A stretch of 64,000 bases of DNA from Convolutriloba macropyga (taxonomy: Eukaryota): assembly GCF_964194025.1 (NCBI RefSeq), contig NC_134474.1, positions 68,200,001-68,264,000 of the forward strand, given 5' to 3'. Positions 9,787 through 64,000 of this stretch are shown piece by piece. Position 1 is the stretch's first letter. Each line of letters begins with the position of its first letter. The notes under the pieces are model-generated. The model saw only the letters and a list, made by a program, of their open reading frames with translations, was not told where the DNA came from and did no database searches. The position numbers were made by a program, and so were the translations under genes.

Positions 9787-10147
9787 GAACATAAACCGAC
9801 TAATGGCGAAAGAATTGCTCTCGAACGACAGGCGGGTAGAAAAACATTTGAACTCGCCGGGATTCGAACCACTGACCACCTGATCCATAACCAGATTCAC
9901 TCCCCACTCGTCCATGCGACCCTCATTTTTGCTATGCTGTAACTGACTTTATATTAGCAACAAGCTTTACTTCGCAGTTAGAGCAATAGAGATCACTCAA
10001 AAATGAAGAACGAAAGCGTGAAAAAGTCACTTGAGAAGTCAAAGAATGTTCTAGAAGAAAAGCGCAAAATGGTCAGGCAAAAAATTTGGATAAAAAAGAC
10101 CAACACGTTTACAATAATTGCTATGAACTTCGTTCAAGAGCAATTAA
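9787..10147 (-). mobile_element. HINE-like element with tRNA-like cassette
   Basis: aattgctctcgaacga ... tcgttcaagagcaattaa; ~90% identical to 14819-15177 outside the cassette. Confidence 0.8.
9851..9922 (-). pseudogene. tRNA-derived (Arg-like) Pol III head inside a HINE
   Basis: Minus strand has A-box-like TGGACGAGTGG, anticodon arm TCTGG-TTATGGA-TCAGG (resembling tRNA-Arg TCTGACTACGGATCAGA) and a perfect B box GGTTCGAATCC. The acceptor stem is imperfect. Confidence 0.65.
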
Positions 10148-10645: not shown

Positions 10646-11662
10646 TCACATATCAAGCGGACAACCACTCATAAATTTTTCGAAATTCTGATCAACTGTC
10701 TTTTTCAATCTGCAAACAAAAAGTGGCCCCCAATTACACTGTACAGTAGGCACAACCAACACTCCATTTTCAGGTCTCCGCACATTCAGAAACTTCTCGA
10801 ATGTTCTAGAAACATCAACATGTTCCACCACGACACAACTTTTCACTGATGACTCACTCACCAACCAGTCAATGACGTCACAATTTTGGCGCTTGTCCAA
10901 GGTACAAGTAGAGTAAACAACATAACCCCCAACTTTACAACTTCGAACAGCTGACAGCAGAAGCTGTCTTTGCAACAATGACAGATCGTCTTGAGACCGG
11001 AACACCTGCTCAGGTGTGACTTGATTGTGGAAAAGGTATCTCTCATTCAAGCAAGGGGCATCAACAAGTACCCTGTCGAAACTTGACTCGAAAAAGTCTC
11101 CAAAATCAATTCCATCCAAACTCGATATATCACAAGTTATATCTCGATTTGTTGCATAATTTTGAATAGTTTCCTGCAGTCGCCATCTGCGTTCACACAA
11201 CACCTCATTTGTAACGATAGCGCTGTTCTTTTTACAGGTCCACGCTATGAGACAAGTTTTAGCGCCAGGGCTGGCACACATATCTAAGACTCTCATACAT
11301 CTCGAATCAGGCGAACCTTGAAATGGCTCGTCTAATTTCAAAGCATCAACACTCAGAGCTGAAGACAAGCTCATAAAAATGAGGGGTCGGAACCTTCTGT
11401 CCCCGAAGAATGGGCTGGATTTTAATTTCTGATCGAAAAGTAACCCCTCTAAGCTTTTCCACTCAATAGCCTCACTAGCTTTTTCTCTCCAGAGACGCTT
11501 AGAAAGGTCAGTTAGGCTCGGGTTCAACCAAGCAAAATGGGGACGCTGCTTGTTTGCGAGATAAGCGCTTTCCACTTCGTCCCATGTATTCCGATCGAAA
11601 TATTGTGAACAAGTTTTGTTGATATATTGTCTCAGAAAATATGGATCTTTCCACTTTTTCAT
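10646..11662 (-). CDS. NSUN3: NOL1/NOP2/Sun-family m5C RNA methyltransferase, NSUN3/NSUN4 type (NSUN3-like), single coding exon, 338 aa
   Basis: Motifs VLDMCASPGAKT, FDRVLVDAPC, VVYSTCTL and a C-terminal GVLVVP..NWGPLFVCRLKK. Length and WGP favour NSUN3 over NSUN4. Confidence 0.8.
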   Translation of the reverse strand: MKKWKDPYFLRQYINKTCSQYFDRNTWDEVESAYLANKQRPHFAWLNPSLTDLSKRLWREKASEAIEWKSLEGLLFDQKLKSSPFFGDRRFRPLIFMSLSSALSVDALKLDEPFQGSPDSRCMRVLDMCASPGAKTCLIAWTCKKNSAIVTNEVLCERRWRLQETIQNYATNRDITCDISSLDGIDFGDFFESSFDRVLVDAPCLNERYLFHNQVTPEQVFRSQDDLSLLQRQLLLSAVRSCKVGGYVVYSTCTLDKRQNCDVIDWLVSESSVKSCVVVEHVDVSRTFEKFLNVRRPENGVLVVPTVQCNWGPLFVCRLKKTVDQNFEKFMSGCPLDM

Positions 11663-12099
11663 TGTTGCATATCGATGCCATCCTTACATCTGCAAAAGAT
11701 TTCAGATCTATTGTTTCGGGCCCCAGCTTAGTGAGCATACAACTTTTATCAATTACTTCCCACTCGACCCCACCTCACACCCAACCCCCCTCCCCCTCCC
11801 CCCCCCCACCTCAAAAGATGCTTGTGCTATTCTTTTTACAGAGTATCGTAATAAAAGCATTATGTAATTCTGGGGCATAAAAAAACTAATTCTACCTCTA
11901 GGCATGCTCAGTAAAATTCCTCTCGCACTCACGAAAAAAAACCTATATCAAGATCCTGACTAGCACAATTAACTATCTCAGATCTATTTTAACCAAACTA
12001 ATTAAGAATTCAGCCCAACGAATTCCGAGCAGCTCTGAAATTCTAGATAGGAGTTCCGCTGTATGGCTGAAAAAAGAAACGCCTATATTGTAAAACAAG

Positions 12100-30400: not shown

Positions 30401-33400
30401 ATCGATTTTCTTTTGAGGGGGGCGATTTTAAGTTTGCTCAGGCAGTAAAAAGAACATAACCGACTAACGTCGGGCAAATTGCTCTCTATCATACCCGATT
30501 AACGTCGGGCGAATTGCTCTCTAACGTCCGGATGGCTTGGTAATGGCCAGCTACGGGCTTAGGGATGAAAGCATTAGGGGGGGCAGGATGAGCGGAGTGG
30601 GGAACTCGGTGAGGGGGTTGGGGTCGAGATAGCCAGCTGAGCTTCAGGAGGGTGCATGGGGGGTAGTGGGGGGATCAATACACGGCAATACTTCGGAAGC
30701 CTTTCTTCTAAGCAGGGAACAAAAAATGAAGGGGCAGAAAATAGGGGGGTAGTGGTGCGGAGGAGCAGGGTAAATCGATTTTCTTTTGAGGAGGGCGATT
30801 TTAAGTTTGCTCAGGCAATTAAAAAGAACATAACCAACTAACGTCGGTTATAGTGGAATATAATATCCCCTAATGACGTCATCATATACCACTTTAAACG
30901 AAAACAAACACCTACTTGCGCTCAATTTTCAATAGACTTTGTAGTGAACTGCCACCACCTGAGTTTAGCTGCTGACACTTGTGAATGAAATATAGATTAC
31001 GCCAAACGAAAAATCCAATTGCGTAAAAATCAATTAAAAAGACGTCAAGCCGTTCACCATAATGACTTCACATTTTGTTCGAGAGCCATTAAAATAAGTC
31101 ACCGAGGAGAAAAAACCTATTGGGAAACAAATACCAAAAATTACAAAGGAAAATTATCAAAAGAAAAATGGGTCTATATTTGATTAAACATACTCGTGGA
31201 TGAGCGGAGTGGGGAACTCGGTGAGGGGGTTGGGGTCGAGATAGCCAGCTGAGCTTCAGGAGGGTGCATGGGGGGTAGTGGGGGGATCAATACACGGCAA
31301 TACTTCGGAAGCCTTTCTTCTAAGCAGGGAACAAAAATTGAAGGGGCAGAAAATAGGGTGGTAGTGGTGCGGAGGAGCAGGGTAAATCGATTTTCTTTTG
31401 AGGAGGGCGATTTTAAGTTTGCTCAGGCAATTAAAAAGAACATAACCAACTAACGTCGGTTATAGTGGAATATAATATCCCCTAATGACGTCATCATATA
31501 CCACTTTAAACGAAAACAAACACCTACTTGCGCTCAATTTTCAATAGACTTTGTAGTGAACTGCCACCACCTGAGTTTAGCTGCTGACACTTGTGAATGA
31601 AATATAGATTACGCCAAACGAAAAATCCAATTGCGTAAAAATCAATTAAAAAGACGTCAAGCCGTTCACCATAATGACTTCACATTTTGTTCGAGAGCCA
31701 TTAAAATAAGTCACCGAGGAGAAAAAACCTATTGGGAAACAAATACCAAAAATTACAAAGGAAAATTATCAAAAGAAAAATGGGTCTATATTTGATTAAA
31801 CATACTCGTGGATGAGCGGAGTGGGGAACTCGGTGAGGGGGTTGGGGTCGAGATAGCCAGCTGAGCTTCAGGAGAGTGGATGGGGGGTAGTGGGGGATCA
31901 AGACACGGCAATACTTCGGAAGCCTTTCTTCTAAGCAGGGAATAAAAAATGAAGGGCCAGAAAATAGGGGGGTAGAGGTGCGGAGGAGCAGAGTAAATCG
32001 ATTTTCTTTTGAGGGGGGCGATTTTAAGTTTGCTCAGGCAGTAAAAAGAACATAACCGACTAACGTCGGGCAAATTGCTCTCTATCATACCCGATTAACG
32101 TCGGGCGAATTGCTCTCTAACGTCCGGATGGCTTGGAAATGGCCAGCTACGGGCTTAGGGATGAAAGCATTAGGGGGGGCAGGATGAGCGGAGTGGGGAA
32201 CTCGGTGAGGGGGTTGGGGTCGAGATAGCCAGCTGAGCTTCAGGAGGGTGCATGGGGGGTAGTGGGGGGATCAATACACGGCAATACTTCGGAAGCCTTT
32301 CTTCTAAGCAGGGAACAAAAAATGAAGGGGCAGAAAATAGGGGGGTAGTGGTGCGGAGGAGCAGGGTAAATCGATTTTCTTTTGAGGAGGGCGATTTTAA
32401 GTTTGCTCAGGCAATTAAAAAGAACATAACCAACTAACGTCGGTTATAGTGGAATATAATATCCCCTAATGACGTCATCATATACCACTTTAAACGAAAA
32501 CAAACACCTACTTGCGCTCAATTTTCAATAGACTTTGTAGTGAACTGCCACCACCTGAGTTTAGCTGCTGACACTTGTGAATGAAATATAGATTACGCCA
32601 AACGAAAAATCCAATTGCGTAAAAATCAATTAAAAAGACGTCAAGCCGTTCACCATAATGACTTCACATTTTGTTCGAGAGCCATTAAAATAAGTCACCG
32701 AGGAGAAAAAACCTATTGGGAAACAAATACCAAAAATTACAAAGGAAAATTATCAAAAGAAAAATGGGTCTATATTTGATTAAACATACTCGTGGATGAG
32801 CGGAGTGGGGAACTCGGTGAGGGGGTTGGGGTCGAGATAGCCAGCTGAGCTTCAGGAGGGTGCATGGGGGGTAGTGGGGGGATCAATACACGGCAATACT
32901 TCGGAAGCCTTTCTTCTAAGCAGGGAACAAAAATTGAAGGGGCAGAAAATAGGGTGGTAGTGGTGCGGAGGAGCAGGGTAAATCGATTTTCTTTTGAGGA
33001 GGGCGATTTTAAGTTTGCTCAGGCAATTAAAAAGAACATAACCAACTAACGTCGGTTATAGTGGAATATAATATCCCCTAATGACGTCATCATATACCAC
33101 TTTAAACGAAAACAAACACCTACTTGCGCTCAATTTTCAATAGACTTTGTAGTGAACTGCCACCACCTGAGTTTAGCTGCTGACACTTGTGAATGAAATA
33201 TAGATTACGCCAAACGAAAAATCCAATTGCGTAAAAATCAATTAAAAAGACGTCAAGCCGTTCACCATAATGACTTCACATTTTGTTCGAGAGCCATTAA
33301 AATAAGTCACCGAGGAGAAAAAACCTATTGGGAAACAAATACCAAAAATTACAAAGGAAAATTATCAAAAGAAAAATGGGTCTATATTTGATTAAACATA

Positions 33401-36400
33401 CTCGTGGATGAGCGGAGTGGGGAACTCGGTGAGGGGGTTGGGGTCGAGATAGCCAGCTGAGCTTCAGGAGAGTGGATGGGGGGTAGTGGGGGATCAAGAC
33501 ACGGCAATACTTCGGAAGCCTTTCTTCTAAGCAGGGAATAAAAAATGAAGGGCCAGAAAATAGGGGGGTAGAGGTGCGGAGGAGCAGAGTAAATCGATTT
33601 TCTTTTGAGGGGGGCGATTTTAAGTTTGCTCAGGCAGTAAAAAGAACATAACCGACTAACGTCGGGCAAATTGCTCTCTATCATACCCGATTAACGTCGG
33701 GCGAATTGCTCTCTAACGTCCGGATGGCTTGGAAATGGCCAGCTACGGGCTTAGGGATGAAAGCATTAGGGGGGGCAGGATGAGCGGAGTGGGGAACTCG
33801 GTGAGGGGGTTGGGGTCGAGATAGCCAGCTGAGCTTCAGGAGGGTGCATGGGGGGTAGTGGGGGGATCAATACACGGCAATACTTCGGAAGCCTTTCTTC
33901 TAAGCAGGGAACAAAAAATGAAGGGGCAGAAAATAGGGAGGTAGTGGTGCGGAGGAGCAGGGTAAATCGATTTTCTTTTGAGGAGCGCGATTTGCAGTTT
34001 GCTCAGGCAATTAAGAAGAACATAACCGACTAACGTCGGTTATAGTGGAATATAATATCCCCTAATGACGTCATTATATACCACTTAAAACGAAAACAAA
34101 CACCTACTTGCGCTCAATTTTCAATAGACTTTGTAGTGAACTGCCACCAACTGAGTTTAGCTGCTGACACTTGTGAATGAAATATAGATTACGCCAAACG
34201 AAAAATCCAATTGCGTAAAAATCAATTAAAAAGTCGTCAAGCCGTTCACCATAATGACTTCACATTTTGTTCGAGAGCCATTAACATAAGTCACCGAGGA
34301 GAAAAAACCTATTGGGAAACAAATACCAAAAATTACAAAGGAAAATTATCAAAAGAAAAATGGGTCTATATTTGATTAAACGTACTCGTGGATGAGCGGA
34401 GTGGGGAACTCGGTGAGGGGGTTGCGGTCGAGATAGCCAGCTGAGCTTCAGGAGGGTGGATGGGGGGTAGTGGGGGGATCAAGACACTGCAATACTTCGG
34501 AAGCCTTTCTTCTAAGCAGGGAATAAAAAATGAAGGGGCAGAAAATAGGGGGGTAGTGGTGCGGAGGAGCAGGGTAAATCGATTTTCTTTTGAGGAGGGC
34601 GATTTGAAGTTTGCTCAGGCAATTAAAAAGAACATAACCGACTAACGTCGGTTATAGTGGAATATAATATCCCCTAATGACGTCATTATATACCACTTAA
34701 AACGAAAACAAACACCTACTTGCGCTCAATTTTCAATAGACTTTGTAGTGAACTGCCACCACCTGAGTTTAGCTGCTGACACTTGTGAATGAAATATAGA
34801 TTACGCCAAACGAAAAATCCAATTGCGTAAAAATCAATTAAAAAGTCGTCAAGCCGTTCACCATAATGACTTCACATTTTGTTCGAGAGCCATTAACATA
34901 AGTCACCGAGGAGAAAAAACCTATTGGGAAACTAATACCAAAAATTACAAAGGAAAAATATCAAAAGAAAAATGGGTCTATATTTGATTAAACGTACTCC
35001 ACTTTTTAACCAAAAACGCGAAAAAAATAAACAACACAATCAAAAGTTCACCAAAACCAATAAAATAAAGAACTTAAATAGAGAAATGTCATAGAAAAAA
35101 CTGATGATTATAAAAAGTGCTGAGAAAAATTTACACACAGCAAAATGACAAAAATTAGACTAAAATTGCATCAGAAGTCAAATAACTGCTTAAGATAGCC
35201 AATAAATGCATCTAAACATGCAGTTATTGGTTAATATCAATGAGAACACCCAGTTTGATTAAAATAAATATAGTCTGCCAGTTAAATAAATAGCTAAAAC
35301 TAAAAACTACGAGAAAAGTCGTCAACACGTTTACCATAATGACTTCAAATTTTGTTCGAGAGCCATTAACATAAGTCACCGAGGAGAAAAAACCTATTGG
35401 GAAACAAATACCAAAAATTACAAAGGAAAATTATCAAAAGAAAAATGGGTCTATATTTGATTAAACGTACTCGTGGATGAGCGGAGTGGGGAACTCGGTG
35501 AGGGGGTTGCGGTCGAGATAGCCAGCTGAGCTTCAGGAGGGTGGATGGGGGGTAGTGGGGGGGATCAAGACACTGCAATACTTCGGAAGCCTTTCTTCTA
35601 AGCAGGGAATAAAAAATGAAGGGGCAGAAAATAGGGGGGTAGTGGTGCGGAGGAGCAGGGTAAATCGATTTTCTTTTGAGGAGGGCGATTTGAAGTTTGC
35701 TCAGGCAATTAAAAAGAACATAACCGACTAACGTCGGTTATAGTGGAATATAATATCCCCTAATGACGTCATTATATACCACTTAAAACGAAAACAAACA
35801 CCTACTTGCGCTCAATTTTCAATAGACTTTGTAGTGAACTGCCACCACCTGAGTTTAGCTGCTGACACTTGTGAATGAAATATAGATTACGCCAAACGAA
35901 AAATCCAATTGCGTAAAAATCAATTAAAAAGTCGTCAAGCCGTTCACCATAATGACTTCACATTTTGTTCGAGAGCCATTAACATAAGTCACCGAGGAGA
36001 AAAAACCTATTGGGAAACTAATACCAAAAATTACAAAGGAAAAATATCAAAAGAAAAATGGGTCTATATTTGATTAAACGTACTCCACTTTTTAACCAAA
36101 AACGCGAAAAAAATAAACAACACAATCAAAAGTTCACCAAAACCAATAAAATAAAGAACTTAAATAAAGAAATGTCATAGAAAAAACTGATGATTATAAA
36201 AAGTGCTGAGAAAAATTTCAACACAGCAAAATGACAAAAATTAGATTAAAATTGCATCAGAAGTCAAATAATTGCTTAAGATAGCCAATAAATGCATCTA
36301 AACATGCAGTTATTGGTTAATATCAATGAGAACACCCAGTTTGATTAAAATAAATATCGTCTGCCAGTTAAATAAATAGCTAAAACTAAAAACTACGAGA

Positions 36401-42485: not shown

Positions 42486-43643
42486 TCATTTATCAGCAAA
42501 CTTGCAGACATTTTCATAGGGAACTTGTACTGTTGTGCCCTCAACACTTACAATCACCGCATAATCACTCTCTTTCAGGGCTTCTACAACACCTATCGCC
42601 CCTCTATGCGTTCCTTTGACAAATTTGACCGTTTTTCCTGGTACTGGAATTACTGTTTCAACGTGGATAACATCCAACTTTATCCTTGTCTCAGGCTCAT
42701 TGATCAATTCGACCATTGCGACATAGTCTGTAACCATCTCACGAACTTTCGCCTTCTGTTTGTAATAGTTATCACCAAGTCTTTTAGTGATAATCTTCAC
42801 AATTAGACCTTTCGACATCCATTTTTCATTATCTTCAGATTCTTTAACCGCTTCCTGCTCTTGCTTCATCTTCTTTGCGCGTAATCCTTCTTCCATCAAT
42901 TCTTGCAGAGCAGTTTTTGGTTTACTTTTTAACTTGAAAGACTTCTTGGAATCCGATCTTGTATCAAGAGGGTTGTCGGAAACTACCAACTTTGAACTAT
43001 CCGGCCCACTGGATGATGAAGGTTTGAGTTTTAAGGTAATTGTTTCTTCTTCGTTATCTCTTTTCAGTTCAGTAGCTTCACATTTACTGCCGGAACTAGA
43101 GCCATCTATCGCCATTTGGCGTTCAATAAATTGTCTGTTTCTTTCCTCGTCTGTGTAATCCATCTTTTCTTTTGCTTTTAGGGCTTCTTGTTTTCGGAGT
43201 GTTTCAGCATCCCGATCTATATACGAAATGAACCATCCTTTTGGTGTTTCGTCCACATGGCATAAACCTTCTCTCCCGAGCCATTTCGTGAAGGCAGTCA
43301 AGGTCACCCATTTGGTGGAGTTCATATGGATGTGTTCCTTAAATTGAATATATTCGTTGTACACTTGATTATTGTGCACTCGTTTCGTCCCAAATCTTCT
43401 CCGAAGAAGGTCCATAAAATCTGACAAAAACTCTTCCGAAAAAGCATCCAAGTATTTAGTGGGATCATCAGCAACCAGCATCATTTGACGCTGGTGACTT
43501 TCAGACATTAAATGGCATTTAAATCCATTTTCGTCTCTGCACTGCTTTTGACACATTTGACAATACCATCGTAGCTTCTGCAAACCTTTAGACTTGATTC
43601 GGTTAGCAATTGCCTTCGGCGTGAGGAAATCGTGCTTGGGCAT
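42486..43643 (-). CDS. KIN: DNA/RNA-binding protein KIN17, intronless, 385 aa
   Basis: N-terminus DFLTPKAIANRIKSKGLQKLRWYCQMCQKQCRDENGFKCH..SESHQRQ, HIHMNSTKWVTLTAFTKWLGREG and C-terminal KOW repeats (ETVIP) are KIN17 hallmarks. Confidence 0.97.
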   Translation of the reverse strand: MPKHDFLTPKAIANRIKSKGLQKLRWYCQMCQKQCRDENGFKCHLMSESHQRQMMLVADDPTKYLDAFSEEFLSDFMDLLRRRFGTKRVHNNQVYNEYIQFKEHIHMNSTKWVTLTAFTKWLGREGLCHVDETPKGWFISYIDRDAETLRKQEALKAKEKMDYTDEERNRQFIERQMAIDGSSSGSKCEATELKRDNEEETITLKLKPSSSSGPDSSKLVVSDNPLDTRSDSKKSFKLKSKPKTALQELMEEGLRAKKMKQEQEAVKESEDNEKWMSKGLIVKIITKRLGDNYYKQKAKVREMVTDYVAMVELINEPETRIKLDVIHVETVIPVPGKTVKFVKGTHRGAIGVVEALKESDYAVIVSVEGTTVQVPYENVCKFADK

Positions 43644-43894
43644 ATTTATATTTCAGGCGTTTAATCTGAAACGGCATTCCAATTTACATCTGCACATTCC
43701 TATTTTCAAAATTCTCAAACAAAACCGTCAATTACGAAAAAACCCCTCCCCAAATAGGGGAGTCGGTCAACTCGATCGGAAAGTCAACTCCTATATACAC
43801 ATATACATTCTGACAGTAGTCAAACGTCAAAATCATCTCAAAAGATAGCTTCTGTGGGAATAAGAAAGGGTGTAGGAGATTACTTGGGTCTTTC

Positions 43895-44292: not shown

Positions 44293-47200
44293 GCAAGCAA
44301 GGTGCAACAGAAACAAACTGAGGAGGAGCTCCTGAACAATCGAGCTTCATTGCCCCCCGTAATAGCTTTTTTGAGGTATGTGGTTGCTGCTACCAAAGAC
44401 GTGGCTCAGGTACATTTTAAAAAAAAACTCTTGCAAACTTTATCTTGATTACTTGCAAACCCTAAATGAATTCACTGGCTGCAATTACCGAATTGAGTTT
44501 TTAAAACAATGCCTTAACAATGATATAATTCCGGATTTTTTGAGGTTTCGCGCTCCTAAAAATGAAATTTTTTCTGAACAAGCGCTGCACAGTTTTCAAT
44601 TAAAGCTCCTGAAACAAGAAATAAACCGTGCGGAGAAAGGCCGTAAGTGTTCAAGGAAAAACTTGAGACAGATCGCAGTAATTTTAGGGAGAAAGTGAGA
44701 CCAAAACTGATGCCATGGCCTGTTGGCAGCATTAGGCGTGAAATGAGGAATCACTCCGCAATTGTTCAAAACCGTCTTAATGGAAAACTTGATAAACTGT
44801 CAGAGAGACAGGATAGACCACTGCGGAATGGCTCCCATAGTAATGTTGTGATAATGGATGGCAGTGAACTTCCAAAGTTTGTACTTGACATCCTATCGTT
44901 TGGACCTAAACACCCTGTGAGAGACAAGTTTAATGAGGTGCACTTCCTGGCAGACGTAGACAAACATGTACGAGAATAGCGCGAGAATAACACTGAGGAT
45001 GAGAAGCTTTGTGAAATTGAGGCGTCCGCAAAATGGTATGCAAAAAATGTACGCGAAACCCCAATGGATAGAGGGGTCAAAAAAGTGCATGATTACCTAA
45101 AAGCCAATGATTTACTGCCATTTGACAAAGGCAGCGGTTTCCGTGTGATGAAGAAGTCAATGAACAGTGAAAAACTTGATGAGGTGCTGAACTCAGATCA
45201 GTTTCAAAAAATCAATGGAGCAAAAGATGATATTGTGATCAAAAATGAAAAACAGATCAATAAAAGCCTGCAACAATTAATGAAGCAAGGGAAAATTAGT
45301 GACAAAAATTATCAAAGACTCAGGTCAACAGGTTGACAACCAGCAAGGCTTCATGGCCTGGCAAAGGTACATAAAAAAGATACACCTCTCCGACCTGTTT
45401 TTTCGATACCTGGTAGCAGCTACGAAAACTTAAACAGATTTCCGGCACCATTTTCCCTACCGGGCGCAAACATTGAAACCAACGCCCAAGATGCTAGAAA
45501 GACCTTAGAGTCTCTCAATATTGAAGGTGACAAGCACACAGTATCTCTTGACGTAAAAAGTTTGTATACCAACGTTCCGGTAGGAGAGGCTATAGAAATT
45601 GCTCTAAGAGAACTCTTTTTCAGCAACCTAGCTCCAGATATCCCAAGATCCGCCATGAAAAGTTTGCTAAAGTTTGCGGTGACGAATGCTCATTTCAAAT
45701 GTAATGGGATTTGGTATGAACAATCAGATGGTCTGGCTATGGGTGCATCACTGGCTGTAATACTAGCAAACGTGTGGATGAAATCGTTTGAGGCATCACT
45801 GCAAAAACCAGAGCTCAGTGAAAATTTTTCCAGATCCGACCAAAACAGGAAGTGCAAAGACTCTAACCGGAGAGTGACTTTCCGAGGACGGGGAGTAGAA
45901 TGTGAGTCATGCAAAAACTGGTTTCATGCAAGATGCCAAAAGATATCGAATGAGGAATACGCCAACATGCAGGATGTTGTTTGGATTTGTTCTCACTGCA
46001 GCAACCAACAGACAGTGGGGCGTTATGAGGAGGTGAAATTGTTTAAAAGGTATGTGGATGATGTTATCTGTACGGTTCGTGGTGACCCAGACGAGTTTTT
46101 AAAATTTGCAAATATATTACACCACAAAATGCAGTTTACCTTAGAAAAAGATAACATGGAAGGGGATTTGGCTTTTCCTGACATTAACGTAAATGTGAGC
46201 AGCAAAAGCATTATCACCTGCCATTGGTATCAAAAAACAACTGACACTGGAATAATACTGAATTTTTGCAGCTGTGCACCGCTTCAGCATAAGAAAAATG
46301 TGATTCAAGGGACCGTTCATAGGGTTTTTTAATACAACCTCTAATTAGTTGGCCTTCGATCAGGCTCTTGAAAAGAACAAAACTTGCTGGGCAGAATAAC
46401 CAATATCCAGAGGAATGGTCTTCAAAAATAGTGAACCAGACTCTAGAAAAGATAATAAGTGGCGGTAAAGACCAAAGCAGAACAACACCAAAAGAGCATC
46501 AAAAAAGCAAGACCAGATCTTATGATAAACCAACTATTTTTCTACAATACAGAGGCAACCTTACTCAAAAGTTTGCAAGCAAATTGAAGAAACTATGCGA
46601 ATTGCAAGTGGTTTTTACAAAGCGGAAATAAGGATTATGCCTCCCCGTCCTGAAATCATCTTTGGATAGTGACCTGAAATCCCACGTGGTATATGGGATT
46701 AAATGTAATGGATGCGGATCCATCTATGTTGAGCAACAAGCCGGCATGTTACCACAAGGATAACAGAATATCAAAAAAGAAGGATTCACAGGTGGGTCAA
46801 CATCTGGTTGAATAACGTGGCGCCACGAAAGACATTGAATGGAAAACTCTGGACGCTTGTCGGACAATAAAAAAACTAATGATTATCGAAGCTAAAAACA
46901 TCAGCAAGCTGAAGCCGGTACTAAACACAGGCAATGACTATAGGTGGCAGTAAAGTTCAAGTTATAATTTTGACTACATGAGGGCAAAAAAGATGCATCA
47001 CAAAACCAAATTTGCAAAACGTCCACAAGAGGGATACTTAAGTTTAGGGCAAATTCAGAATAACCCTAAAAATACAAGAACATGGCCAAAATCGAAAAAT
47101 CGGGAATAGGAATACTTTTAAATAAATTGATAACAGATGTAAATATGAGTTGTAAACAGGCTAAAAATTGTACATAAGGAAAAATTTTTGATTGAATTTT

Positions 47201-50899: not shown

Positions 50900-53665
50900 A
50901 AAGCTGGTTTTTTCCTTTTGTATGTAGTCAGGTCTGAATATGAATCCAGTTTTCTTGCGCTGGTTCTTGCTGCCAACCTATAGCTTTTGCCGCCGAAGGG
51001 CTAGTTCCCCGAGTACAGGATAATGTCAATGGACAGGTGGCCCTTGCGACTTCAATTACTTATCGCTGTAAAAAACTCTTTTGATTCTACTCCCTGACTT
51101 TTCCACTCTCTGACGCTAGTGCTGCTGAAAAATTTTCTTGATGATACTGAAATTATTGTCCTAGCGTTCCACAACACCTCAACCCCAAAGGGCATCTCAT
51201 GCCGTTAAAAGATAATCGATTCCAATCAGTTCCTGAAAAACCTTCCCAAAGACTTACCAATATGGTTCTGCAGCGACTTTAAATTTCATGAGACAAACTG
51301 GGAGACACTAACGAGTTCATATGAACGTGACGAAGATGTGATAGAAATTTTTGAAGAGACACTTTACCTGCAAGTAATAGACACCACGCATGTTAGCAGA
51401 ATATACCAGATGTAAATTTGTGTCACAATTGTAGCTAGTTAGCTGAAAAGGACCGCTCGTTCTGCGAGATAAACGACGGTTTCGATCATAAGGAGATCTA
51501 TCGAAAACTTGAGTACTCAACACCAGAATACAAACCGGTAATGGAAATTCTCAAAAATTTTGGGAGATCCGACTACCTGATAGAGAACGCATACCTGATA
51601 AAGAATTTTTTGCAGCAACGTGCTTTTCTATCATCAACATTATCGAATACGATCTCTATGAGTACTTTGAAAAAATGATCAAGATCTTTATCCCACGACG
51701 AAACAGACATCGCCAAAGTCTTCCAACCTGAATCAAGAGCTAAACGTCCAACTTGATAATGAGATTAACTCCTTCCAAAAAATGACTGACAGGTCAACTA
51801 TTTACTGGAACCGAATCGTAACATAACTAAAAATTTTGGTAACAGAATCCGCAGAAAAGAACTCAAAAGAGAATATCAGAAAAACTGCTGGGCTTAAAAA
51901 ACACGGATAAAACTTTCAAACTTCTAAAAAATTTAGACAAGTCTCAAAATTTACCTAATTTCCTGATCTATTGCAGCAAATAATCAACGAACAACAAATA
52001 ACAATTGAATACGTTAAACAAACTCTTCAATCCGTTTGCTCTTCAACCCTGCGTTCAATTTAACTGACATCAAGACTGAGGAACCAACGTTGACAAACTT
52101 TGAGAAAACTATCCACTCCATAGTTTCATCCGTTGACATATCAAAGATGCGAAAAAAAAGTGACTGCCTTCCGCCTTCTTCCAAAAAACCATTCGAGGCA
52201 TGGTCAAAATCCCGACCAAGAATTTAAAATGTTTGCGCAAAACCCTAGACTGCTGGAAACTGACTGCATCTTCTTCAGTTACAAAAGGCAATTCTTTTCT
52301 TCAGGCAGCAAAAGATGTGTGAACAACTACAGACATATTTCAATGTCAACTATAGAGGTCAAATTTTATCAAGAGGTGCTTATACCTAGAACTTTACAAC
52401 CAAAATTGCTGCCTTCTGACATCAGAACGGTTTTGAAAGAATTCGACAAGGTCACAACCAATATGCTATTGAAAAGGATACATGAAAAAGATATATGAGG
52501 TCGTTGAAGAAAATCCCGACACTTGGATTGTGGCGTTCTACACAGATTACAATAAACCATTAAACGAATCACCTCACTGAAAGTTTTTAGAGAAAGTTGA
52601 AGGCTTAGGTGTAGGGGCGTGTTTACTGGAGATCCTGTTCCACTACCTCTTGGTCCCCCTTCTCTCCTGCATCTTTATTAAAGGCTTGCCGGAAGCCCTC
52701 ATAATCTCAAATGCATTCATTTCTGTTGCTTATTAAAAATAATAGCAACTGGAGAAAAAACATGAGAGGAACAAGAAGACGGGAATGTAACCCAAAAATG
52801 GGTGGAAACAAAAAATTTGATTTTACCATGCAAAAGTGCAATAAAATTATTTTCAGAGGAAATAATAAGTCCTAACGGATGTCCGAATACATAACTCAAC
52901 GACAGTGAAATACCTAGGGATTCATGCGTTGAGTAACCTTACTTGGAAGGAGCACGACAAAAAGAAGCTAAAGAAAGTGAACAAAAAGCTCTACTTGCTT
53001 CGCAAGATTGTTGCAATGAGTGTATAAACGAGGATCAAACTTGGACTCTGAAAAACCTCAATTCTTCCAGTGGTATTGAGCGGTTTCGTTTGCATAATGT
53101 GATCAAGAAATGAGCTGAAAGAACTGGACAAACTCCAGAAGAAATTTGACTAGTTAATCACTGCATTCAGAAAAGTAAGTAATGAAAGCCAAAATTAGAC
53201 TGCTAAATATCCTCCCACTGCCGACATTGCTGCACCAAAATATTCTGTTGCTTCTGTCAAGGAAGAAGAACAAATATTCGAACTTCATTGAGCTGCCGGA
53301 AACTTTGCAAGACAAAAGAAAAAAAGACATCCTTATGCTCGATAAAATTGTACCAAAAAAGATCGCGGAGTGTTTGTCAAAAAATGTCAATTTTTGAATA
53401 GGGTGGACAAATTCCATGAAAATGAGAACGAAACCGGACTAAAAAAATAGGGATAATTTGGTGTTTTGTCAACGAACGGCGTTTTGTTACTCTGAATAGA
53501 ACGTAAGCACCGGGCAATTGTTTTGTGATTGCCATCTCTAGAAATAAGTGAACAAAACTTTAAATTTGATGACTGGCTCTGAAAATCCTGCAACGGAAGT
53601 CGCGAAACCACAACAACCACAACAACAACAACAATAACAATGACAACGACAACAACAGCAACAAG
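50900..53665 (+). mobile_element. Heavily decayed LINE related to 47557-49218, with (AAC)n-like tail
   Basis: APE and RT remnants, RLLNILPLP motif shared with ~48760, tail at 53607-53665; 5' boundary approximate. Confidence 0.75.
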
Positions 53666-54020
53666 AAAACTTTCTCCACATGCACATGTCCATAGTATTT
53701 CTAGCCTCACAGGTTTCCGGCCGCATCTGAGGGCAATGCCATCTCTAAATGTTCCCCGGGTTATATGAATATTATATCCTTTCGACGGGATCGCTCTCAG
53801 TCAGAAATATATCGCTCTTTCATTTGCTAGACTTGGAGAATAAGCCTCAGTTTGATCAAGAAAACGTATCATTTGTGAAACTTTCTTGGGATCCTGTTGC
53901 TGCCTCTCCTTGAATTTTCTTAAGGTGCGTAGTTTTAGTGAGTATGTGTACGTGTGTGTACGGAGGGTGGTTTCAGTGAACCATCTTAGAGGAGGTCCAA
54001 AACGGTTTAAGTGCATCGCA
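53665..54020 (-). mobile_element. CRE-clade retrotransposon fragment (post-RT region); duplicated at 56065-56420
   Basis: AIPSK.YNFHITRGTFRDGIALRCG..P......CACGESF resembles the CRE WL..P....F.L...EFRDA..LRYG...C.CG segment. Confidence 0.65.
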
Positions 54021-55549: not shown

Positions 55550-56420
55550 GTTAATCACTGCATTCAGAAAAGTAAGTAATGAAAACCAACATTAGACTGC
55601 TAAATATCCTCCCACTGCCGACATTGCTGCACCAAAATATTCTGTTGCTTCTGTCAAGGAAGAAGAACAAATATTCGAACTCCATTGAGCTGCCGGAAAC
55701 TTTGCAAGACAAAAGAAAAAATGACATCCTTATGCTCGATAAAATTGTACCAAAAAAAGATCGCGGAGAGTTTTTGTCAAAAATTGTCAATTTTTGATTA
55801 GGGTGGACAAATTCCATGAAAATAAGAACGAAACCGGACTAAAAAATAGGGATAATTTGGTGTTTTGTCAACGAACGGCGTTTTGTTACTCTGAATAGAA
55901 CGTAAGCACCGGGCAATTGTTTTGTGATTGCCATCTCTAGAAATAAGTGAACAAAACTTTAAATTTGATGACTGGCTCTGAAAATCCTGCAACGGAAGTC
56001 GCGAAACCACAACAACCACAACAACAACAACAATAACAATGACAACGACAACAACAGCAACAAGAAAACTTTCTCCACATGCACATGTCCATAGTATTTC
56101 TAGCCTCACAGGTTTCCGGCCGCATCTGAGGGCAATGCCATCTCTAAATGTTCCCCGGGTTATATGAAAATTGTATCTTTTCGACGGGATCGCTCTCAAT
56201 CAGAAATATATCCCTCTTTCATTTGCTAGACTTAGAGAATAAGCCTCAGTTTCATCAAGAAAGTGTATCGTTTGTGAAACTTTCTTGGGATCCTGTTGCT
56301 GCCTCTCCTTGAATTTTCTTAAGGTGCGTAGTTTTAGTGAGTATGTGTACGTGTGTGTACGGAGGTTGGTTTCATTGAACCATCTTAGATGGATGTCCAA
56401 AACGGTCTAAATGCACTGCA
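55550..56420 (+). repeat. ~870-bp duplicate of 53150-54020 (LINE 3' end plus CRE fragment junction)
   Basis: Near-identical from gttaatcactgcattcag to gtccaaaacggt. Confidence 0.95.
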
Positions 56421-58092
56421 GATTTTCGGCAATTTAAAATGTGCACGTGAGTGTTTTAAGTATCGTTTCTATATCGGAGGCTAGTGTTCTGCGCAATTGA
56501 AAATCCAGATTGTCTCTATATCACATTGAATGTTCTCTGATGTTGAAAGAATTCTGATCAGAGTCAGACAGAAGTCTGATTGGCAAAAACCTTGTCATTT
56601 AGTGCAAACTATCTATATATTGCTGCTGCATTGCAGACTCTCACAAGTCTTTAAATTTTTTCGGATTGATAACTGGTTGCTGAGGCAAATACCATTGTTA
56701 GTTCTCAGTTTGACATTTTTCGGTTTATTCAATTTTTCAAACTCATCACTTTTTGATGTCTATGATGCTGTTGAGACCGCGTGTTTGTAAAGCTTTTTCT
56801 TCTTCTAGCTGTCAATCTGGAGATTTCAATGACCTCTAAGGGAATAGAGGTCGCTTGGTAACTTCATATTGTCTTCGCATTGCAGAAAACCAATATAAGA
56901 CAATTTTCACTGGTATATTGAAATATTTGTGGCAATGTTTGAATTGCTCGTTGTTCGTGATTTGACTAACCGCCGGCGACATAACAATTCAACATGAATA
57001 ACCAGTATCGCAAAACGTACTCAGTTCTTGAGCTATTTTCTAATCTGATTAGATTTATCTTGTTGTATCAAGTTTCACTGCTTGCCTAGCTGGAGTCGAA
57101 CTGCATAGAGCCCAACTAATTTTTGTTTTCAGGACTCGCGGCGCAGTTTCGCCGTCGCATTTTATGATCTCAGTGTCAACAATGGCCGAAGTTTCTCACA
57201 GGCCACTATTTCAGTATTTACATCGTGTGATCAATGGTTAGTTAAAACTAATAAGGGCGCTTTTCATCCTAGGATTACAAATTGAGAAACCTGACTCCTC
57301 TAGCAACAAAACGAGGACTCAGGGTCAAAAATTCCCAGAGCATTAAGAACTCAGTCAGCTTGATACTTTCAACTTCTTATCTTCCTCATTTTAAATTCAT
57401 TGCTATTGCTGTTGTTATATGTGGCATGCATCCTTCCTTGAGAAATAGCTACTCAGGAGTTTATTGTGTCGTTTTCCTTAGTTGTGGACACGAAAATTCT
57501 GTTTTTGCAGCTTTTCGGCAGCTGAGTTGGTCTCAGGCAAATGAAACGCAATCGATTTTTCTGAAAATCGTGATTTTCATCGTTAATTCAGTTTTATGGG
57601 TTTGAAATTTGCACAAGCCCAAAAAACGTTTGAGCGTAACGTCATTTTGTTTGGTTTGTTGCGGCTTCGGAATTTAATTTATTGAATTGACAAGAATTTT
57701 TGTGCTAATAGATGTTATGAAAATCAGCTTTGGAAACAAACCATATTAAAAAACATTCAAGTTAGCACCTGTATTTGTTGCAACCACTGTTGTTTCGTAT
57801 GAAGGGAAAAACGTCCCAAAATACGGCGAGAACAGAGATTTCCCACCAATTACTGCACTGATTCCAACTACGGAAATTCTGAGGGAAACCCTGGAAACTC
57901 TGCTAATTTGAGTGTGGGCAGTCATTTTTGCAGAGGCACCACTCCAAACTGGCAGGAAAAAAATTGGTGAGTGGTTTTGCTTATTGTGTTCCATTGTAAA
58001 TTGTGAACAGATCCTTTGCAAAATAGTCACGCGAACTGTGGTTCATGTTCCTATTTCGCTGTATTGAGTGCTCTTTCTGCTGAAATTTAATG

Positions 58093-58200
58093 TTTGGGAA
58101 AAATTAATTTTGTTGAACCTTTATCAACAAATTAATTTGGGAAAAATTAATTTTGTTGATTCTTGATTTTTGGGAAAAATTAATTATGTTGATACTTGAT
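58093..58200 (+). repeat. Three copies of tttgggaaaaattaatt(t/a)tgttga
   Basis: Direct repeats visible in the sequence. Confidence 0.8.
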
Positions 58201-58277
58201 TCTTGATTTGAGTTGTAATCATTGAACAATGCGTCTCGCTTGTTATGATTCTATATCTTTGGAGTGTTGGAGAGAAA

Positions 58278-58280
<3 letters not shown>

Positions 58281-58328
<48 letters not shown>
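58281..58328. repeat. (TA)n microsatellite abutting the Polinton end
   Basis: Perfect TA run. Confidence 0.95.
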
Positions 58329-58330
<2 letters not shown>

Positions 58331-61300
58331 TAGTATCGTATATATACAGGAAGATCGGGGGGGGGATCCTTTGGAGATCCGTTCAGCAGAGGGGGATCCC
58401 TGATCCCTTAGGGGAGATCTTTTAAAATAGGAAAGTGGTAATTGCGCTACATGTATTTGTCTGGTGGCTTATTGTTGGTATTGCGCTATTGGAAAGCCAT
58501 TCCAGTTTCAACTTTTCTTGCTTATTTGTGGCAAAACCTAGCAAAGTAGATTTGAATTAAAGCTGAATTTATACGTTACAACATATAGAATAGAATTGTT
58601 ATAGAAACTGTTATAGATAAGAGAATTAAACACGTACAAAAGCGTCAAATTGCATACAAAATAGCGCATTGTTTTGTTAATTAAGAGTCTGATTCTATCG
58701 CTTCATAATCAATAAATGGGTTAAACACTGGACGTTCTTCTTCTATCTAATTTTCATCGGCAATTTCATCAGAACAAATATCAGACTCTGTGATTGCGGC
58801 GGTTCTTACGAAGCCGGGGTCAGGGATTTCAGCGTTGTCAGTATTCGTTTCAACTGTGGTTTCAATTTCCCTCTGGTTTTCAATTTCGTACAACTCTCCA
58901 GACGACCAGGAACTCAACGATTCATTATCGAAATTGTCGTCTTCGTCGAAGAAACGATCGTGCACAATATTTATGTGACCAAACGGCAGCGTATCGATCC
59001 CATTTTCAAGAGTGTATCGTTTATCGTCGAAAGCGTTGAGCGACACTTTATTAATGGTTACTGTATGGAGTTGGTGGATGCTAGAAGCTATTCTATGGTT
59101 TTGCGTGCGGATCAAACGACCAGAGGAGAGCGTTTCTTTGAATCTGTCATGCGTCAGTTGTCGTTGTGCTAATTTTGTGACGCCTTTAGCTGATTTCTTT
59201 TCCCCGCCATCTAAATTAAAATATTGAACATTAGGAACAGTCCCAACTAACAAGCTGTATATTGATACGTGTGAGTGTGATGAAAACTAACTTACCAATT
59301 GCAATTACTGAGTAGAGTTTCGGCTTGAGAGCACAAAATTCTTGAATAGGCACGCTGGCAAACTCGTCCTTAAACTTCAGGACGACATATTCGTTCACTT
59401 TGGAGAAGAGCGGGTGCTGTGGTGGATAATTAGAGAAGTCGAAATGTTGCAAAATATGAATTTTTTGGCGTATATCTTCATAAACGTCTATTGTATTGAT
59501 TCGATATAGCAGTGAATCAGTATCCGAGTAGAGAACTTTGCAATCAAAATTTGGCTTCATCACTGTATAATGGAATTGGAACATGTGTAATTTGGCCAGA
59601 TCAAGTACACATGCCCCTACAATAGTGGGTTTGTTCCAATAAATCCGTTTTTTTGCAGTTTTTTGCAGCCATGCTCTCTCCAAAGATTTTGAACGATTTA
59701 AAATGAAAGTTTTGCGTTCTTTGTAGCACACTTTGAGCATTTCGAACAATAACGACTTGATCACGGTTCCTTTTCGACTCGCACGTTTTTCCGAACGCTG
59801 AATTATTCATGCCCTTATAGAACTTTTTGCCACAAGCAGTACTGGCAGCAATCCGGAGACTGGTATTTAGCTCCATGTAGGGTCGCATCCAGTTCGCTCG
59901 CTCAAACTTTAATGCCCGATGAAGTTTTGTAATTTTGAGCCCCATTGTATTGTAGAATTGGGCAAGCCGATAATGTAGCGTGTAGCGGTTTTTAAACAAC
60001 AGCGTTTGGACGAGTTTTGGCCCAGATGACTTTTCAGGTAAGTGCATCTGTACTTTCAAATTTTTCTGGTAACCGCTCAGCCAAGAATGTTTGATTTTCA
60101 ATTTGGATGGCGCCAGAGGGTAATCTTGATGAGCTTCATGAAATTCGGGTGGATAATCAATATCAACTTCAATTATGTATCCATGCTGTGCCGTTGACGA
60201 AATTTTTAGTACTTCCTCGAGCGTGATGTGTGCATCTAGCGCAAAATCCTTCAAGGGCAAATGATCGTTCTGCATTACGCCGCCGTAGAGGTTATTTGCG
60301 TCTAGCATCAACGCATATGTAGACGGCTTAGAAGCATCATAGTTCGGCAGATGGAAGTTGTTTGCTTGAAAGAGTCGTTGCTCATAGATTGAAGACACTC
60401 CTCCGCGCATCATGTTCACTACAAGTTCAAGTTGTTCTCTCTCGGTTAGCAAATGCAGGTCGGGTTTGCACACCTTGAGGAACGCATCTCCTGATAAATT
60501 TGATGCTCCATAGTACTGTGCGCAATCTAAACCGTACGTGTCATAGCAGATATCTCTGAAAGCCTCAAAGACGCACGCCAAGAGCAAAGTGTCACTGGTT
60601 AGATAAAGGTCGTGGTAGTGGCCGATGTTTTGACAACCAAATTTTGAAAACACTGTTTGAGCATGATTGTAGTCGGTTTCGCTGATAGTGACTTCACCGC
60701 CATGCAATGTATTTTTCCATTCCGATAATGGAGGCAACACTTTTTCTTCAAACACTTGTTCTGATGTGATGTAGGAATAACAGTAAAAACCTTTTTGGCA
60801 GATAAGTTGAAAATCGCTATTGGAGTTAGATTCATACTTAGAGCGTAGAATGTCAAAGCGATTGTCAGGCAGATCAGCTACCAAGGACTCGAGTGATTGG
60901 GGCATGAAGTTAAACGTGTCAATTAACCTTATGTATTCGAAGATGGGTACTTGTTGTCCGGCCTCCGACTCAAAATTTTTAATGAACACTCCAACAGAGA
61001 GTGATATATAGTTTTCGTCCGTAGAAGGTATAACTTCAAACTTCGTTTCTGGCTCACACTCTGCTAGTGCAAGACATATATGATGAATATCATACTTTTT
61101 GATATTATGACCAATCATTGGCGTAAAGTTAGATGTTCTGCGACGAGTGTTACAGAGTTGATGCGCCCACCCTAGAAAATGACCATCGTAGGGACAATGG
61201 TCAAGAACAAGCGCAGCCTCATCGTTTATTTCGTTTTCACAGATCCAACATCTTGTGTTATTTTCACGCGCTGGAACAGGTCCTCGGTAGGGTCCGTAGA

Positions 61301-63100
61301 AAGCTCGTTTTCGGTTGTAGATGTCCCGCGCCAGTACGTGCAAAGATTTTACAAATTCGTTCATACAGTTGTCACCTCTTTTGAGTTCAAAGTAGACAGG
61401 AGTTGCTTTACCGTGTTCTATGGCTGATATTGCATAACCACAAGGTTCATGTTTTTCAATTGCAACTGTGTAGGAAGTAGAGGGTGAGGGTTGTGCTGTA
61501 GCGATTGGAACAAGATAAGATTCTGTGTCAAAGTATAGAACGATAGGAAGAAACCAGCGTGCTTTCCAGTTTCTGAACTGTAGGGAAGTGTTGCTTTCTG
61601 TGGCATAACAATTTCTGCTGCTGCATGTTCACTGCATGTTTTAACATGGTTTTGATAAGTTTCTCTGTTTGTACACAAATGAAAACAATTTCGACAAATA
61701 CGCTGCGCTGCACGGTGCGCTATACCTTTGAAGTATGCGACAAATCGTTCCAGATTCAAGATGAGAACGTAGTGATGGGCATTCTCATCGTGGAGGAGAA
61801 GAAGGTCCATTGTGAAGGATTTGTTTGACTTTTTGGAAACGTAGATCATCACCAAACGTGTTCCCTCGATTCTGTAAACAAAACAGATTCATGAAGACCA
61901 ATACAGTTTTAACATTTTGATTCGTTGAGCGGGATTATTTGAATTTTATTGATATTATTAAAGAAACACGTACCCGAAAACATTGACGCGAACGTCGTTG
62001 GCGTCCTCAAAGTATGGGATCCTGTTTATGGGCATGGGCATCTGATAGTCTCCAACCGGCTGTCGTTCCGCATTCTTGTACGTATCTGGATTCGTCTTTT
62101 CAGTTCCCGATCGACCTTCTGTCAGTAAATTGATTCGATTTTTGATGTGATACGCGGCAACGAAACAATACACGAAGCAGTTGTGATCAAAATGGTTTCG
62201 TATGTTGAGCAATGAACGGCATCCGTTCAGGAAACCAGGTAGAGCTATATATGACGATGCATGCACGGGGGCAAAGGCGGCTATCTTGATTTCCAGTCTG
62301 TTTACTTTGCGTAGAATCCATCCACTGCCTTGTGACGAAAACATGAAGAGAATATTCAACATCTTACTCAACATCTTGAAAAAATCTTTGTTTGAGAGTC
62401 CATCCAAGTACACTGTAGTCATTTCAGAGCTAGCAAAGATTTCGATAGCTTGTTCTTCGTTGTCATTTTCGTTTCTTTCTTTGTACAGATCCAGAGACAC
62501 AACAAACTGAATTTTTTTGGCTGCAGTCGAAACTTCGCTGTTTATAAGGTCCGTTATGATGTCTCTATTGTTCAGCATGAACTCCATGAGATCTTGGTCG
62601 TCCTCCGTTCCATCAATAGTGAAAACTTGAAGTGCTCCTTGAAAGGCGGATTCTGTTGGCCTTCTGCTTGTTTCACTAGTTCTCGAGGGCAGTCCATGTT
62701 GATCTCTTATGTGTGTGGCAAAGCGATCAGCAGAATCAAAGCCAATGTAGCAGTAGAGACAACATTGTACTAACGGATTATGTCGGTTTCCGAAATGTCG
62801 TTCGAGAGTTCGTAGATCTCTTGTAGTGAAATCACAGTGTTCACAGCGGTACACTGGCACTCCAACTTCATCTGGATGCAAGTTCCTTTGGTGACGATTG
62901 CGGTTGGTGCGAAATGTGAATTTTGCGTTACAAAATTTGCACGAGAAACTCATTGTTGAATCAATTTGAAGATAAAATGGTTTTGAGTTCGAGCTAAACC
63001 AAACCTTCAACTCTCTAAAAATAACCAACGTTCTGATTGGTTGAATTTGAAAACATGTTCAAAACGAAATTTCTAGGGACAAAGTTTCTTTCCAATCAGT
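58329..63100 (-). mobile_element. Left end of a Polinton/Maverick (right boundary unknown, may extend past the window)
   Basis: Terminus AGTAGT directly after (TA)n, a GATC-rich subterminal region, then a pPolB gene pointing at the terminus. The partner TIR, integrase and capsid genes are not seen. Confidence 0.75.
58681..62953 (-). pseudogene. Protein-primed family B DNA polymerase (pPolB) with N-terminal C2H2 fingers and an EndoVII-like module; 2 introns, 2 frameshifts, 1 likely premature stop
   Basis: ExoI YFDTES, ExoII GHNIKKYD, ExoIII YLTSDT; Pol motifs RGG, DANNLYG, K.MNNSAFGK, YSDTDS, KLYS. Introns at 61973-61872 and 59295-59211; frameshifts near 61597 and 59665; TAG at 58749-58747. 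Confidence 0.92.
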
Positions 63101-63390
63101 TAACTAAAGGATTACACAAGAGTGAATACCATCATTGCCCAATGTTCACAGCCCTATTAATTAAATTAGGAGATGGATGAAGCTTTAGAAACAACATTTT
63201 TTTTATCCCGTAAGAGGGCGTCTAGCATTTTATGCAAATTTAGTCCTGCTTTATGCAAATTCCATCATTCGCCAGTGAGGGCGTAGATCATGTTTTATGC
63301 AAATCCATTTGCATATATGATTGGTATTCTGGCCAAAGAGGGCTACAATCATGTCTTATGCAAAGTTGAATTAAAATGCAAATACCAATG
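63030..63390. promoter_or_regulatory. Candidate promoter region upstream of pPolB: two CCAAT boxes and an octamer (ATGCAAAT) cluster
   Basis: ctgattgg at ~63033 and ccaatcag at ~63092; ATGCAAAT at 63232, 63253, 63297 and 63376, ATTTGCAT at 63307. Confidence 0.4.
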
Positions 63391-64000
63391 TTTTGCCGTA
63401 ATAGTCGGAGACTTATGCGTATTTTCTATGCAATATATGCGTAATGACTATGCAATGACGTGTTTTAGCGAGCCTTATATGGTTAAATGGCTTTATTGGT
63501 GTTCCAGTGCAACTGAATATCTCTTTTTAGGCATAAAAAAATTGATTATCGCAGTTTTTTTAAACAAAAACCTTGAAAAAAAATTTTTTTGAAAATAGAT
63601 TTGAATTTTAGTATAACAAGTCCCCTCAATGATTACTGGAGGTTGTAGCAGAATCAGTTGAGGGTTGAAAGATTTTAAAAAACTAAGAAAAAATGTTTTT
63701 AAAAGTTGGAAAAAAATTGATTTTTTTTTTGTTTTTTTTCGCAATTTTTAATGGAACTCATACTTGGTGAGCAGCTAGCTTCATCATTTTTATGATCAAA
63801 GTTTCACACGGTGAGATTTTATGAAGACCGGTTTTTACAGAAGTGTGAAAAAACCTCGGGAACACGATTTTTCAAAACATCTGGCAGCCACATGTTTTTA
63901 ATTGAAAACAGGTGTTAGCGAAAACCGTGATCCCGGGGTTTTTTGGCCATGATCATCATAACCTTTTATTTCTGTTACAAAGTCGTAAGAAAAACTCATT

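Follow-up and report, generated by a model that had tools for sequence, protein, structure and literature searches.

The polymerase gene (pPolB) of a Polinton/Maverick in the genome of Convolutriloba macropyga is interrupted at two sites by short inserts that are probably real introns, routinely spliced out by the host and gained early in the history of a Polinton clade. The copy considered here lies in a 64,000-nt stretch of DNA, hereafter the window (NCBI RefSeq assembly GCF_964194025.1, contig NC_134474.1, positions 68,200,001 to 68,264,000 of the forward strand); coordinates are window positions unless prefixed, G000 denotes the host genome, and L and P numbers are labels of loci and proteins. 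The inserts are likely to be old and genuine, because in distant sister families the gene has interruptions at these two positions as well, and they are, judged from sequence, likely to be U2-type spliceosomal introns. New here, as far as sequence comparison can tell, are the deep positional conservation of the introns, the occurrence of all four states of presence and absence, and a clade with GC donors.

Mavericks have been both described and screened for as elements with intronless core genes. Intron-split polymerases look broken to open reading frame (ORF) pipelines, and in databases, proteins from this clade frequently have their start or end at one of the two sites, so that working families are likely undercounted. 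Splice sites kept for so long would show nuclear transcription and dependence on the host spliceosome through the whole life cycle, and the four states among co-resident families would offer a compact system for studying intron gain and loss in a DNA-only replicon, the switch between GT and GC donors included.

Two inserts in the pPolB gene

The pPolB gene runs on the minus strand. Exon 1 (61974..62953) encodes C2H2 zinc fingers, a terminal-protein-like domain and the start of an OTU-like protease (Cys codon 62177-62179); exon 2 (59296..61871) encodes the rest of the OTU-like domain (His codon 61772-61774), the exonuclease region and the polymerase motifs; and exon 3 (58681..59210) encodes the C-terminal part and an acidic tail. 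The exonuclease region in exon 2 contains an EndoVII/HNH-like insert (~61143-61268, minus strand; PF02945, E 7.5e-4, below its cut-off). The initial annotation had placed GT-AG stretches of 102 nt at 61973-61872 and of 85 nt at 59295-59211, and both the coordinates and the ends are as it gave them. The first, of phase 2, falls within the OTU-like domain; the second, of phase 1, separates the K-x-Y motif from S-A-K-G.

Insert 1 (GG/GTACGT...TTTACAG/A, slashes marking the boundaries) is in frame and has stops inside, and insert 2 (G/GTAAGT...ATTTAG/AT) shifts the frame; when 20 long homologues are used in tblastn, the alignments show a gap across site 1 and a change of frame at site 2. Taking both out restores the frame, removes the stops and gives the expected motif spacing, in agreement with the first reading of the sequence: N(VF) and His are then 36 codons apart, as against 35-36 in uninterrupted homologues, and Y(S) and the G of SAKG 15 codons apart, as against 14-15. 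A donor consensus, a T-rich 3' tract and GT(GC)...YAG ends are present at the inserts.

The family to which the window copy belongs numbers at least 40 copies at 97-100 % identity. Both insert lengths are kept in 29 of 29 siblings, and each acceptor in 28 of the 29. A 6-bp target site duplication is found in all six sibling copies examined, and 18 left ends lie in 17 different flanks; from the near-identical copies, the target duplications and the varied flanks it follows that the two inserts were already in place during the recent spread of the family. Codon-position polymorphism within this young family is uninformative.

Overlooked in the initial annotation was the decay of the window copy itself, which has frameshifts near 61600 and 59660, at each of which all 29 siblings differ from it in length, as well as an early stop near 58750 (open frame of 179 aa versus 201 aa in most close siblings). 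No full polymerase would thus come from this copy even with both introns spliced. Its intron-1 donor is, in addition, a private and weaker variant.

Conservation of sites and phases across pPolB families

Comparison was extended to other pPolB families in G000, found by protein searches and represented by 52 hand-picked loci, the choice favouring long open frames. Very many distinct families live side by side in G000: first-look searches gave 1601-9820 candidates, and many of the families have long open frames. Among the loci with both anchors mapped, an insert is present in 25 of 49 at site 1 and in 39 of 44 at site 2, and an automatic call of GT/GC-AG ends succeeded for 22 of the 25 and 36 of the 39, respectively. 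At site 1, all ten family representatives have the GT at the identical base, in phase 2 and in the codon after N-V-F, with an in-phase acceptor CAG or TAG; the geometry tested for site 2, phase 1 and six to seven codons after the Y of K-x-Y, is matched by 13 of 14 representatives. Background dinucleotide frequencies are 0.049 for GT and 0.060 for AG. The inserts in family representatives measure 56-169 nt at site 1 and 60-208 nt at site 2, many of these lengths not being multiples of three. Lengths in the range of 56-208 nt, together with the spliceosomal ends, argue against a group I or group II self-splicing intron; Rfam returned no match at E<=1 over 58300-64000. In a host chaperonin gene, one GT-AG intron measures ~140 nt.

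Positions are shared by families that have otherwise diverged deeply. Middle-exon identity among 14 insert-bearing families is 41-79 % (median 49 %), and the inserts fall into nine clusters at site 1 and 13 at site 2, with no BLAST alignment between clusters. In 13 family pairs, the proportion of nonsynonymous differences (pN) in the flanking exon pieces is 0.03-0.32, versus an uncorrected synonymous proportion (pS) of 0.48-1.0; all three exons are under purifying selection. Intron identity, for its part, lies within 10 points of shuffled controls in ten of the 13 pairs, and reaches 63-67 % versus 47-48 % in the three closest pairs. Conservation of intron positions in other copies, put forward as a check when the stretches were first noticed, therefore turned out far stronger than expected, and the shared sites, phases and YAG ends suggest that the stretches behave like spliceosomal introns, as had been proposed.

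Donor type varies within this pattern. Intron 2 has GC-AG ends, in the context AAG/GCAAGT, in L119, L140-L148, L283 and L284 (GCAAAT in L284); in L123, closely related to this clade, the donor is GT and its surroundings are unchanged. Among U2 introns, GC donors whose consensus is otherwise ideal are a familiar pattern.

Outside G000, the two sites are carried by the metagenome contigs L195, L196, L197 and L220; for L195 and L196, G000 offers short matches only and no close relative. Among 38 loci on viral contigs, a GT-AG insert was found in none of the 24 with both anchors mapped at site 1 and in none of the 35 at site 2; among 80 metagenome loci, the figures are one of 36 (two with L196) and three of 53, all in the close clade. 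The imprint of the sites is also visible in unspliced database proteins of 841-875 aa (P0025, P0027, P0030, P0031, P0034 and P0041), which begin immediately past site 1 and finish shortly beyond site 2. One NCBI gene model, P0108, joins both sites, and the DNA of its family carries both inserts; as a prediction made on a decayed copy, it counts for little.

That the stretches are unspliced, being instead decay products, small insertions acquired after integration or coding loops, is very improbable. The window copy is indeed decayed, some distant pPolBs do have in-frame coding inserts near site 1, and post-integration introners are known in dinoflagellate Maverick-like elements (10.1101/2025.03.18.643946). 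Yet both inserts occur at equal lengths in all the siblings, they bring in stops or a change of frame, deeply diverged families share their positions with splice signals alone kept, and exon 3, beyond the second of them, is under purifying selection. Moreover, intron-1 candidates are not in excess of those for the element (104 versus 128), and all of the best 40 scored matches include exon flanks.

Distribution and history of the introns

All four combinations of the two introns exist. Both are present in the window family, L114, L276, L278, L281 and L196; site 1 only is occupied in L121, L126 and L127 (L129 also carries an insert at site 1); site 2 only in L119, L133, L134 and L140-L150; and neither intron is present in proteins P0005, P0007, P0008, P0011, P0013, P0051 and P0061. 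Absence is exact: the anchors then lie 105-108 nt apart at site 1 and 42-45 nt apart at site 2, equal to the spliced spacing. L275 and L286, members of one young family, might be taken to have lost intron 1, but the 3' end of the intron translates like x-V-F and the insert is present.

The middle exon was used for a quick maximum-likelihood tree of 60 hand-picked rows (33 loci and 27 proteins), in which a clade of 51 rows (SH-aLRT 100) stands apart from nine distant rows and includes every intron-bearing row. Within the clade, intron-less rows branch among the intron-bearing ones, and its base holds two rows that lack intron 2. The minimum number of changes is ten at site 1 (present in 20 of 53) and five at site 2 (33 of 58), or five and four when states inferred from protein ends are dropped, whereas shuffled-label controls need means of 11-19. 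The four states and the exactness of absence favour an old gain followed by repeated loss.

It is unlikely that the patchiness reflects, instead, repeated independent gain of real introns at two hot spots, or their recombination or homing between families. The least number of changes, 5-10 at site 1 and 4-5 at site 2, would suit such a history, as would the HNH/EndoVII-like domain encoded by the gene, the many families together in one genome and the sub-gene replicase mosaicism reported for these viruses (10.64898/2026.10.13.758929). However, many independent gains at identical sites and in identical phases would be improbable, the intron-less P0005, P0007/8/11/13/51 and P0061 are nested among intron-bearing forms, and no mobile donor is indicated, because the inserts share no sequence. 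Recombination between families could nonetheless contribute to the pattern, acting alongside loss.

Several observations weigh against early gain, routine splicing and loss. Three of the 25 insert-bearing G000 loci at site 1 and three of the 39 at site 2 failed the automatic call; they look decayed and were judged by eye. The acceptor of the L281 group at site 2 lies outside the tested geometry. Polymorphism within the young family is alike in introns and exons (0.65-1.28 % versus 0.59-1.0 %). The change counts do not tell gain from loss, and with 17 of 56 branches open the tree has a weakly resolved backbone, so that an early gain followed by repeated loss makes the simplest account and not a proven one. 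Lastly, a spliced junction in RNA has not been observed: in the contigs of four runs from one study, which are not informative on expression, no joint was found at intron 1 among the seven joints listed, nor was there one at intron 2 in the 15 listed of 29 joints. A contig present in three of these four runs aligns with both exons and has the intron-1 region replaced by 108 unlike letters.

Intron 1 and the OTU-like domain

The place of intron 1 in the protein was assessed with a fold model of P0284, a natural piece of 329 residues from a sister family without intron 1, which is 44 % identical to exon 1 of the window copy (mean pLDDT 90.5). The stretch at model residues ~4-138 corresponds to the little-finger/PAD domain found in Y-family polymerases; for residues 145-276 the matches are OTU domains (best Z 8.1, root mean square deviation 3.3, 100 residues aligned), with many OTU matches at Z 5-7. 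The fold, the Cys and the His are thus all present in what is predicted to be a viral OTU (vOTU) protease domain. No OTU folds were among the matches that Foldseek listed for the model, and a sequence search of the PDB gave only zinc-finger proteins among the best 60 of 66 matches. Site 1 corresponds to model residue 238, in the core strand 233-240 of the OTU-like domain, between Cys166 and His270.

The initial annotation had raised the possibility that retention of intron 1 yields a separate N-terminal, terminal-protein-like product, and this suggestion did not hold up well, since site 1 lies inside the OTU-like domain and many families have no intron 1. In its fuller form, the idea makes intron 1 a regulated switch, its retention giving a short zinc finger-terminal protein that serves as a separate primer protein, as in adenoviruses; this is a doubtful alternative. 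The entire terminal-protein-like domain lies upstream of site 1, and in eight of ten family representatives a retained intron would stop translation after a single intron codon, just past N-V-F, but a phase-2 GTRAG donor gives such a stop automatically. A stop upstream of intron 2 would also be expected to trigger nonsense-mediated decay. The predicted retention product, comprising zinc fingers, the whole terminal-protein-like domain and a broken protease, would bear ~95 residues of broken OTU fold without the His. Splits of terminal protein and polymerase did arise several times in polintons, but the published splits and the proposed cleavage fall between the terminal protein and the OTU domain, not inside the latter (10.1101/2024.03.18.585575). 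With site 1 within the OTU domain rather than at its border with the terminal protein, a product dedicated to the terminal protein is possible, though there is no support for it. Equally speculative is a wider scheme in which the clade kept both introns beyond synonymous saturation with intron 1 as such a switch, retention giving a stand-alone terminal protein with a disabled protease and splicing the full polymerase, so that replication would come under host splicing control and the intron-less families would represent reverse-transcribed mRNA recombined into a DNA virus.

Routine splicing of both introns, the likely reading, would imply the following course of events. The element would be transcribed in the nucleus by host RNA polymerase II, and the host spliceosome would remove both introns to give one mRNA, to be translated into one terminal protein-OTU-exonuclease-polymerase polyprotein, from which the OTU domain might cut off the terminal protein, as proposed for polintons generally. 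The introns were likely gained early in the Polinton clade and then lost exactly and repeatedly, probably when the gene recombined either with a reverse-transcribed copy of its spliced mRNA or with a sister family that has no introns.

Relation to known Polintons and other mobile elements

The expectation that known pPolB genes are mostly continuous, voiced when the inserts were first noticed, agrees with the accessible literature, where core Maverick genes are described as intronless. Intact vertebrate Mavericks are reported to be without introns, in agreement with Kapitonov and Jurka 2006 (PMC8097293), and in nematode Mavericks the core genes are intronless and introns occur in cargo genes only (10.1101/2022.07.12.499685). 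Introners in dinoflagellate Maverick-like elements are described as mostly secondary insertions (10.1101/2025.03.18.643946), and group I introns are listed in polinton-like viruses (PMC12220804). The accessible text of 10.1101/2023.08.22.554363, PMC8502044, PMC11071296, PMC6431247, 10.64898/2026.07.28.741278 and 10.64898/2026.10.13.758929 does not mention spliceosomal introns in pPolB. No description of conserved spliceosomal introns in a Polinton polymerase was found in the accessible literature, although Repbase, subscription papers and supplements may hold one.

Animal Polintons/Mavericks (adintoviruses) of vertebrates (PMC8097293) and nematodes (10.1101/2022.07.12.499685, 10.1101/2023.08.22.554363) resemble the present element in their length of ~17 kb, (AGT)2//(ACT)2 ends, terminal inverted repeats (TIRs) and 6-bp duplication, as well as in their set of pPolB, rve integrase, adenovirus-like protease, double jelly-roll capsid and an ATPase, for which the present element has a candidate; they differ in that their core genes are intronless, whereas here two position-conserved pPolB introns run through a clade. 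The pPolB2/Alpha types share the N-terminal OTU domain and the HNH-like insert in pPolB, a tentative placement made by the Pfam labels of homologues and by the HNH-like domain. The dinoflagellate elements likewise have spliceosomal-type introns inside Polinton-like elements, but their introners are young, repeated, transposon-derived and mostly post-integration (10.1101/2025.03.18.643946), in contrast to the introns here, which appear to be old, cannot be aligned from one family to another, keep a constant position and are copied along with the element. A TP-vOTU architecture, TP being the terminal protein, has been proposed for polintons, with the vOTU predicted to cut between the two (10.1101/2024.03.18.585575), and the TP-vOTU-EXO-PALM polymerases of that report match the present one in domain order, in the little finger/PAD-like TP and in the Cys and His of the OTU domain. 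In the polinton TP/polymerase splits and the adenovirus pTP/Pol pair covered there, on the other hand, the split is between TP and OTU, and intron 1 is inside OTU. Among CACTA transposases, families are alike in differing in exon number mainly via intron loss (PMC4158355, by its title); CACTA elements are, however, cut-and-paste plant transposons without a viral module.

Structure and gene content of the element

The element is 17,226 bp long and extends from window position 58329 to G000:C7:68275554. The window holds the part at 58329..64000, and the genes for the protease, the major and minor capsid proteins, the integrase and a candidate ATPase lie past the window. The left terminus (58329..58422, plus strand) has an AGTAGT end and a TIR that is 92 % identical to the right end over 94-99 nt; siblings begin to match the window at 58329 (AGTAGT...) and onward, and comparison with them gives ends of AGTAGT on the left and ACTACT on the right, at G000:C7:68275554, with TIRs of ~95 nt. 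The (AGT)2//(ACT)2 motif of these ends is that of PMC8097293. The window copy sits in (TA)n, so its own target duplication is uninformative.

Identification of the gene as a Polinton pPolB, made in the initial annotation, is borne out by homologue identity, motifs, TIRs, integrase and protease. Over most of its length, pPolB is 43-49 % identical to homologues of 1200-1460 aa, several of them with PF03175, and it has the DANNLYG and YSDTDS motifs. Among the 120 homologues of similar length that were listed, three are labelled Convolutriloba macropyga, which makes an acoel the likely host. A retrovirus-like integrase (PF00665, rve, E 1.5e-8) and an adenovirus-like cysteine protease (PF00770, E 9.1e-6) are both above cut-off. 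The candidate packaging ATPase has a Walker A motif and a Pox_A32 match at E 0.026, below cut-off, and forms a 243-aa frame in siblings. The double jelly-roll major capsid protein, a 436-aa frame in siblings, had no match in the Pfam scan and an atlas score of 0.97 to clusters with 11-39 % PF21738 (DJR-like), a method that gives leads. Uninterrupted frames for the integrase, the candidate ATPase, the protease and the two capsid proteins occur among ten siblings, each in at least some copies, so among core genes the interruptions are limited to pPolB.

Three accessory frames without Pfam matches lie at L061:4593-5731 (plus), L061:2974-3861 (minus) and L062:2196-2912 (minus); the last has an acidic D-x-E start and is presumably suggestive of a DEDD nuclease. 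The left host flank (57227..58328) ends in (TA)n and has an inverted copy past the right end. This 1.1-kb inverted duplication (98 %) consists of 57227-58328 and G000:C7:68275555-68276640, outside both termini, and among the sibling copies examined it was seen in the window copy only; it could stem from a template switch at integration, a TIR-driven rearrangement or an assembly artefact. Adjoining the duplicated flank is a 340-bp palindrome with a long (TA)n centre, like a miniature inverted-repeat transposable element (L062:4638-4977, G000:C7:68276638-68276977).

Other features of the window

Elsewhere, the window contains a single-frame KIN17 gene (Pfam; 42486-43652, minus) and a frame at 10646-11683 (minus) that we take to be RNA methyltransferase-like. 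Host chaperonin paralogues are in some cases single-frame and in others many-exon. Decayed frames at 44375-46631 (plus) belong, presumably, to a reverse transcriptase like that of long interspersed nuclear elements, with a Cys-rich stretch that we take to be PHD-like within the reverse transcriptase frame (45337-46332). A tandem array with a 372-bp unit occupies 27652-33715 and has a recurring 35-bp subrepeat and a strong G and A skew, and a direct duplication of ~865 bp, 97 % identical, links 53153-54015 with 55550-56415.

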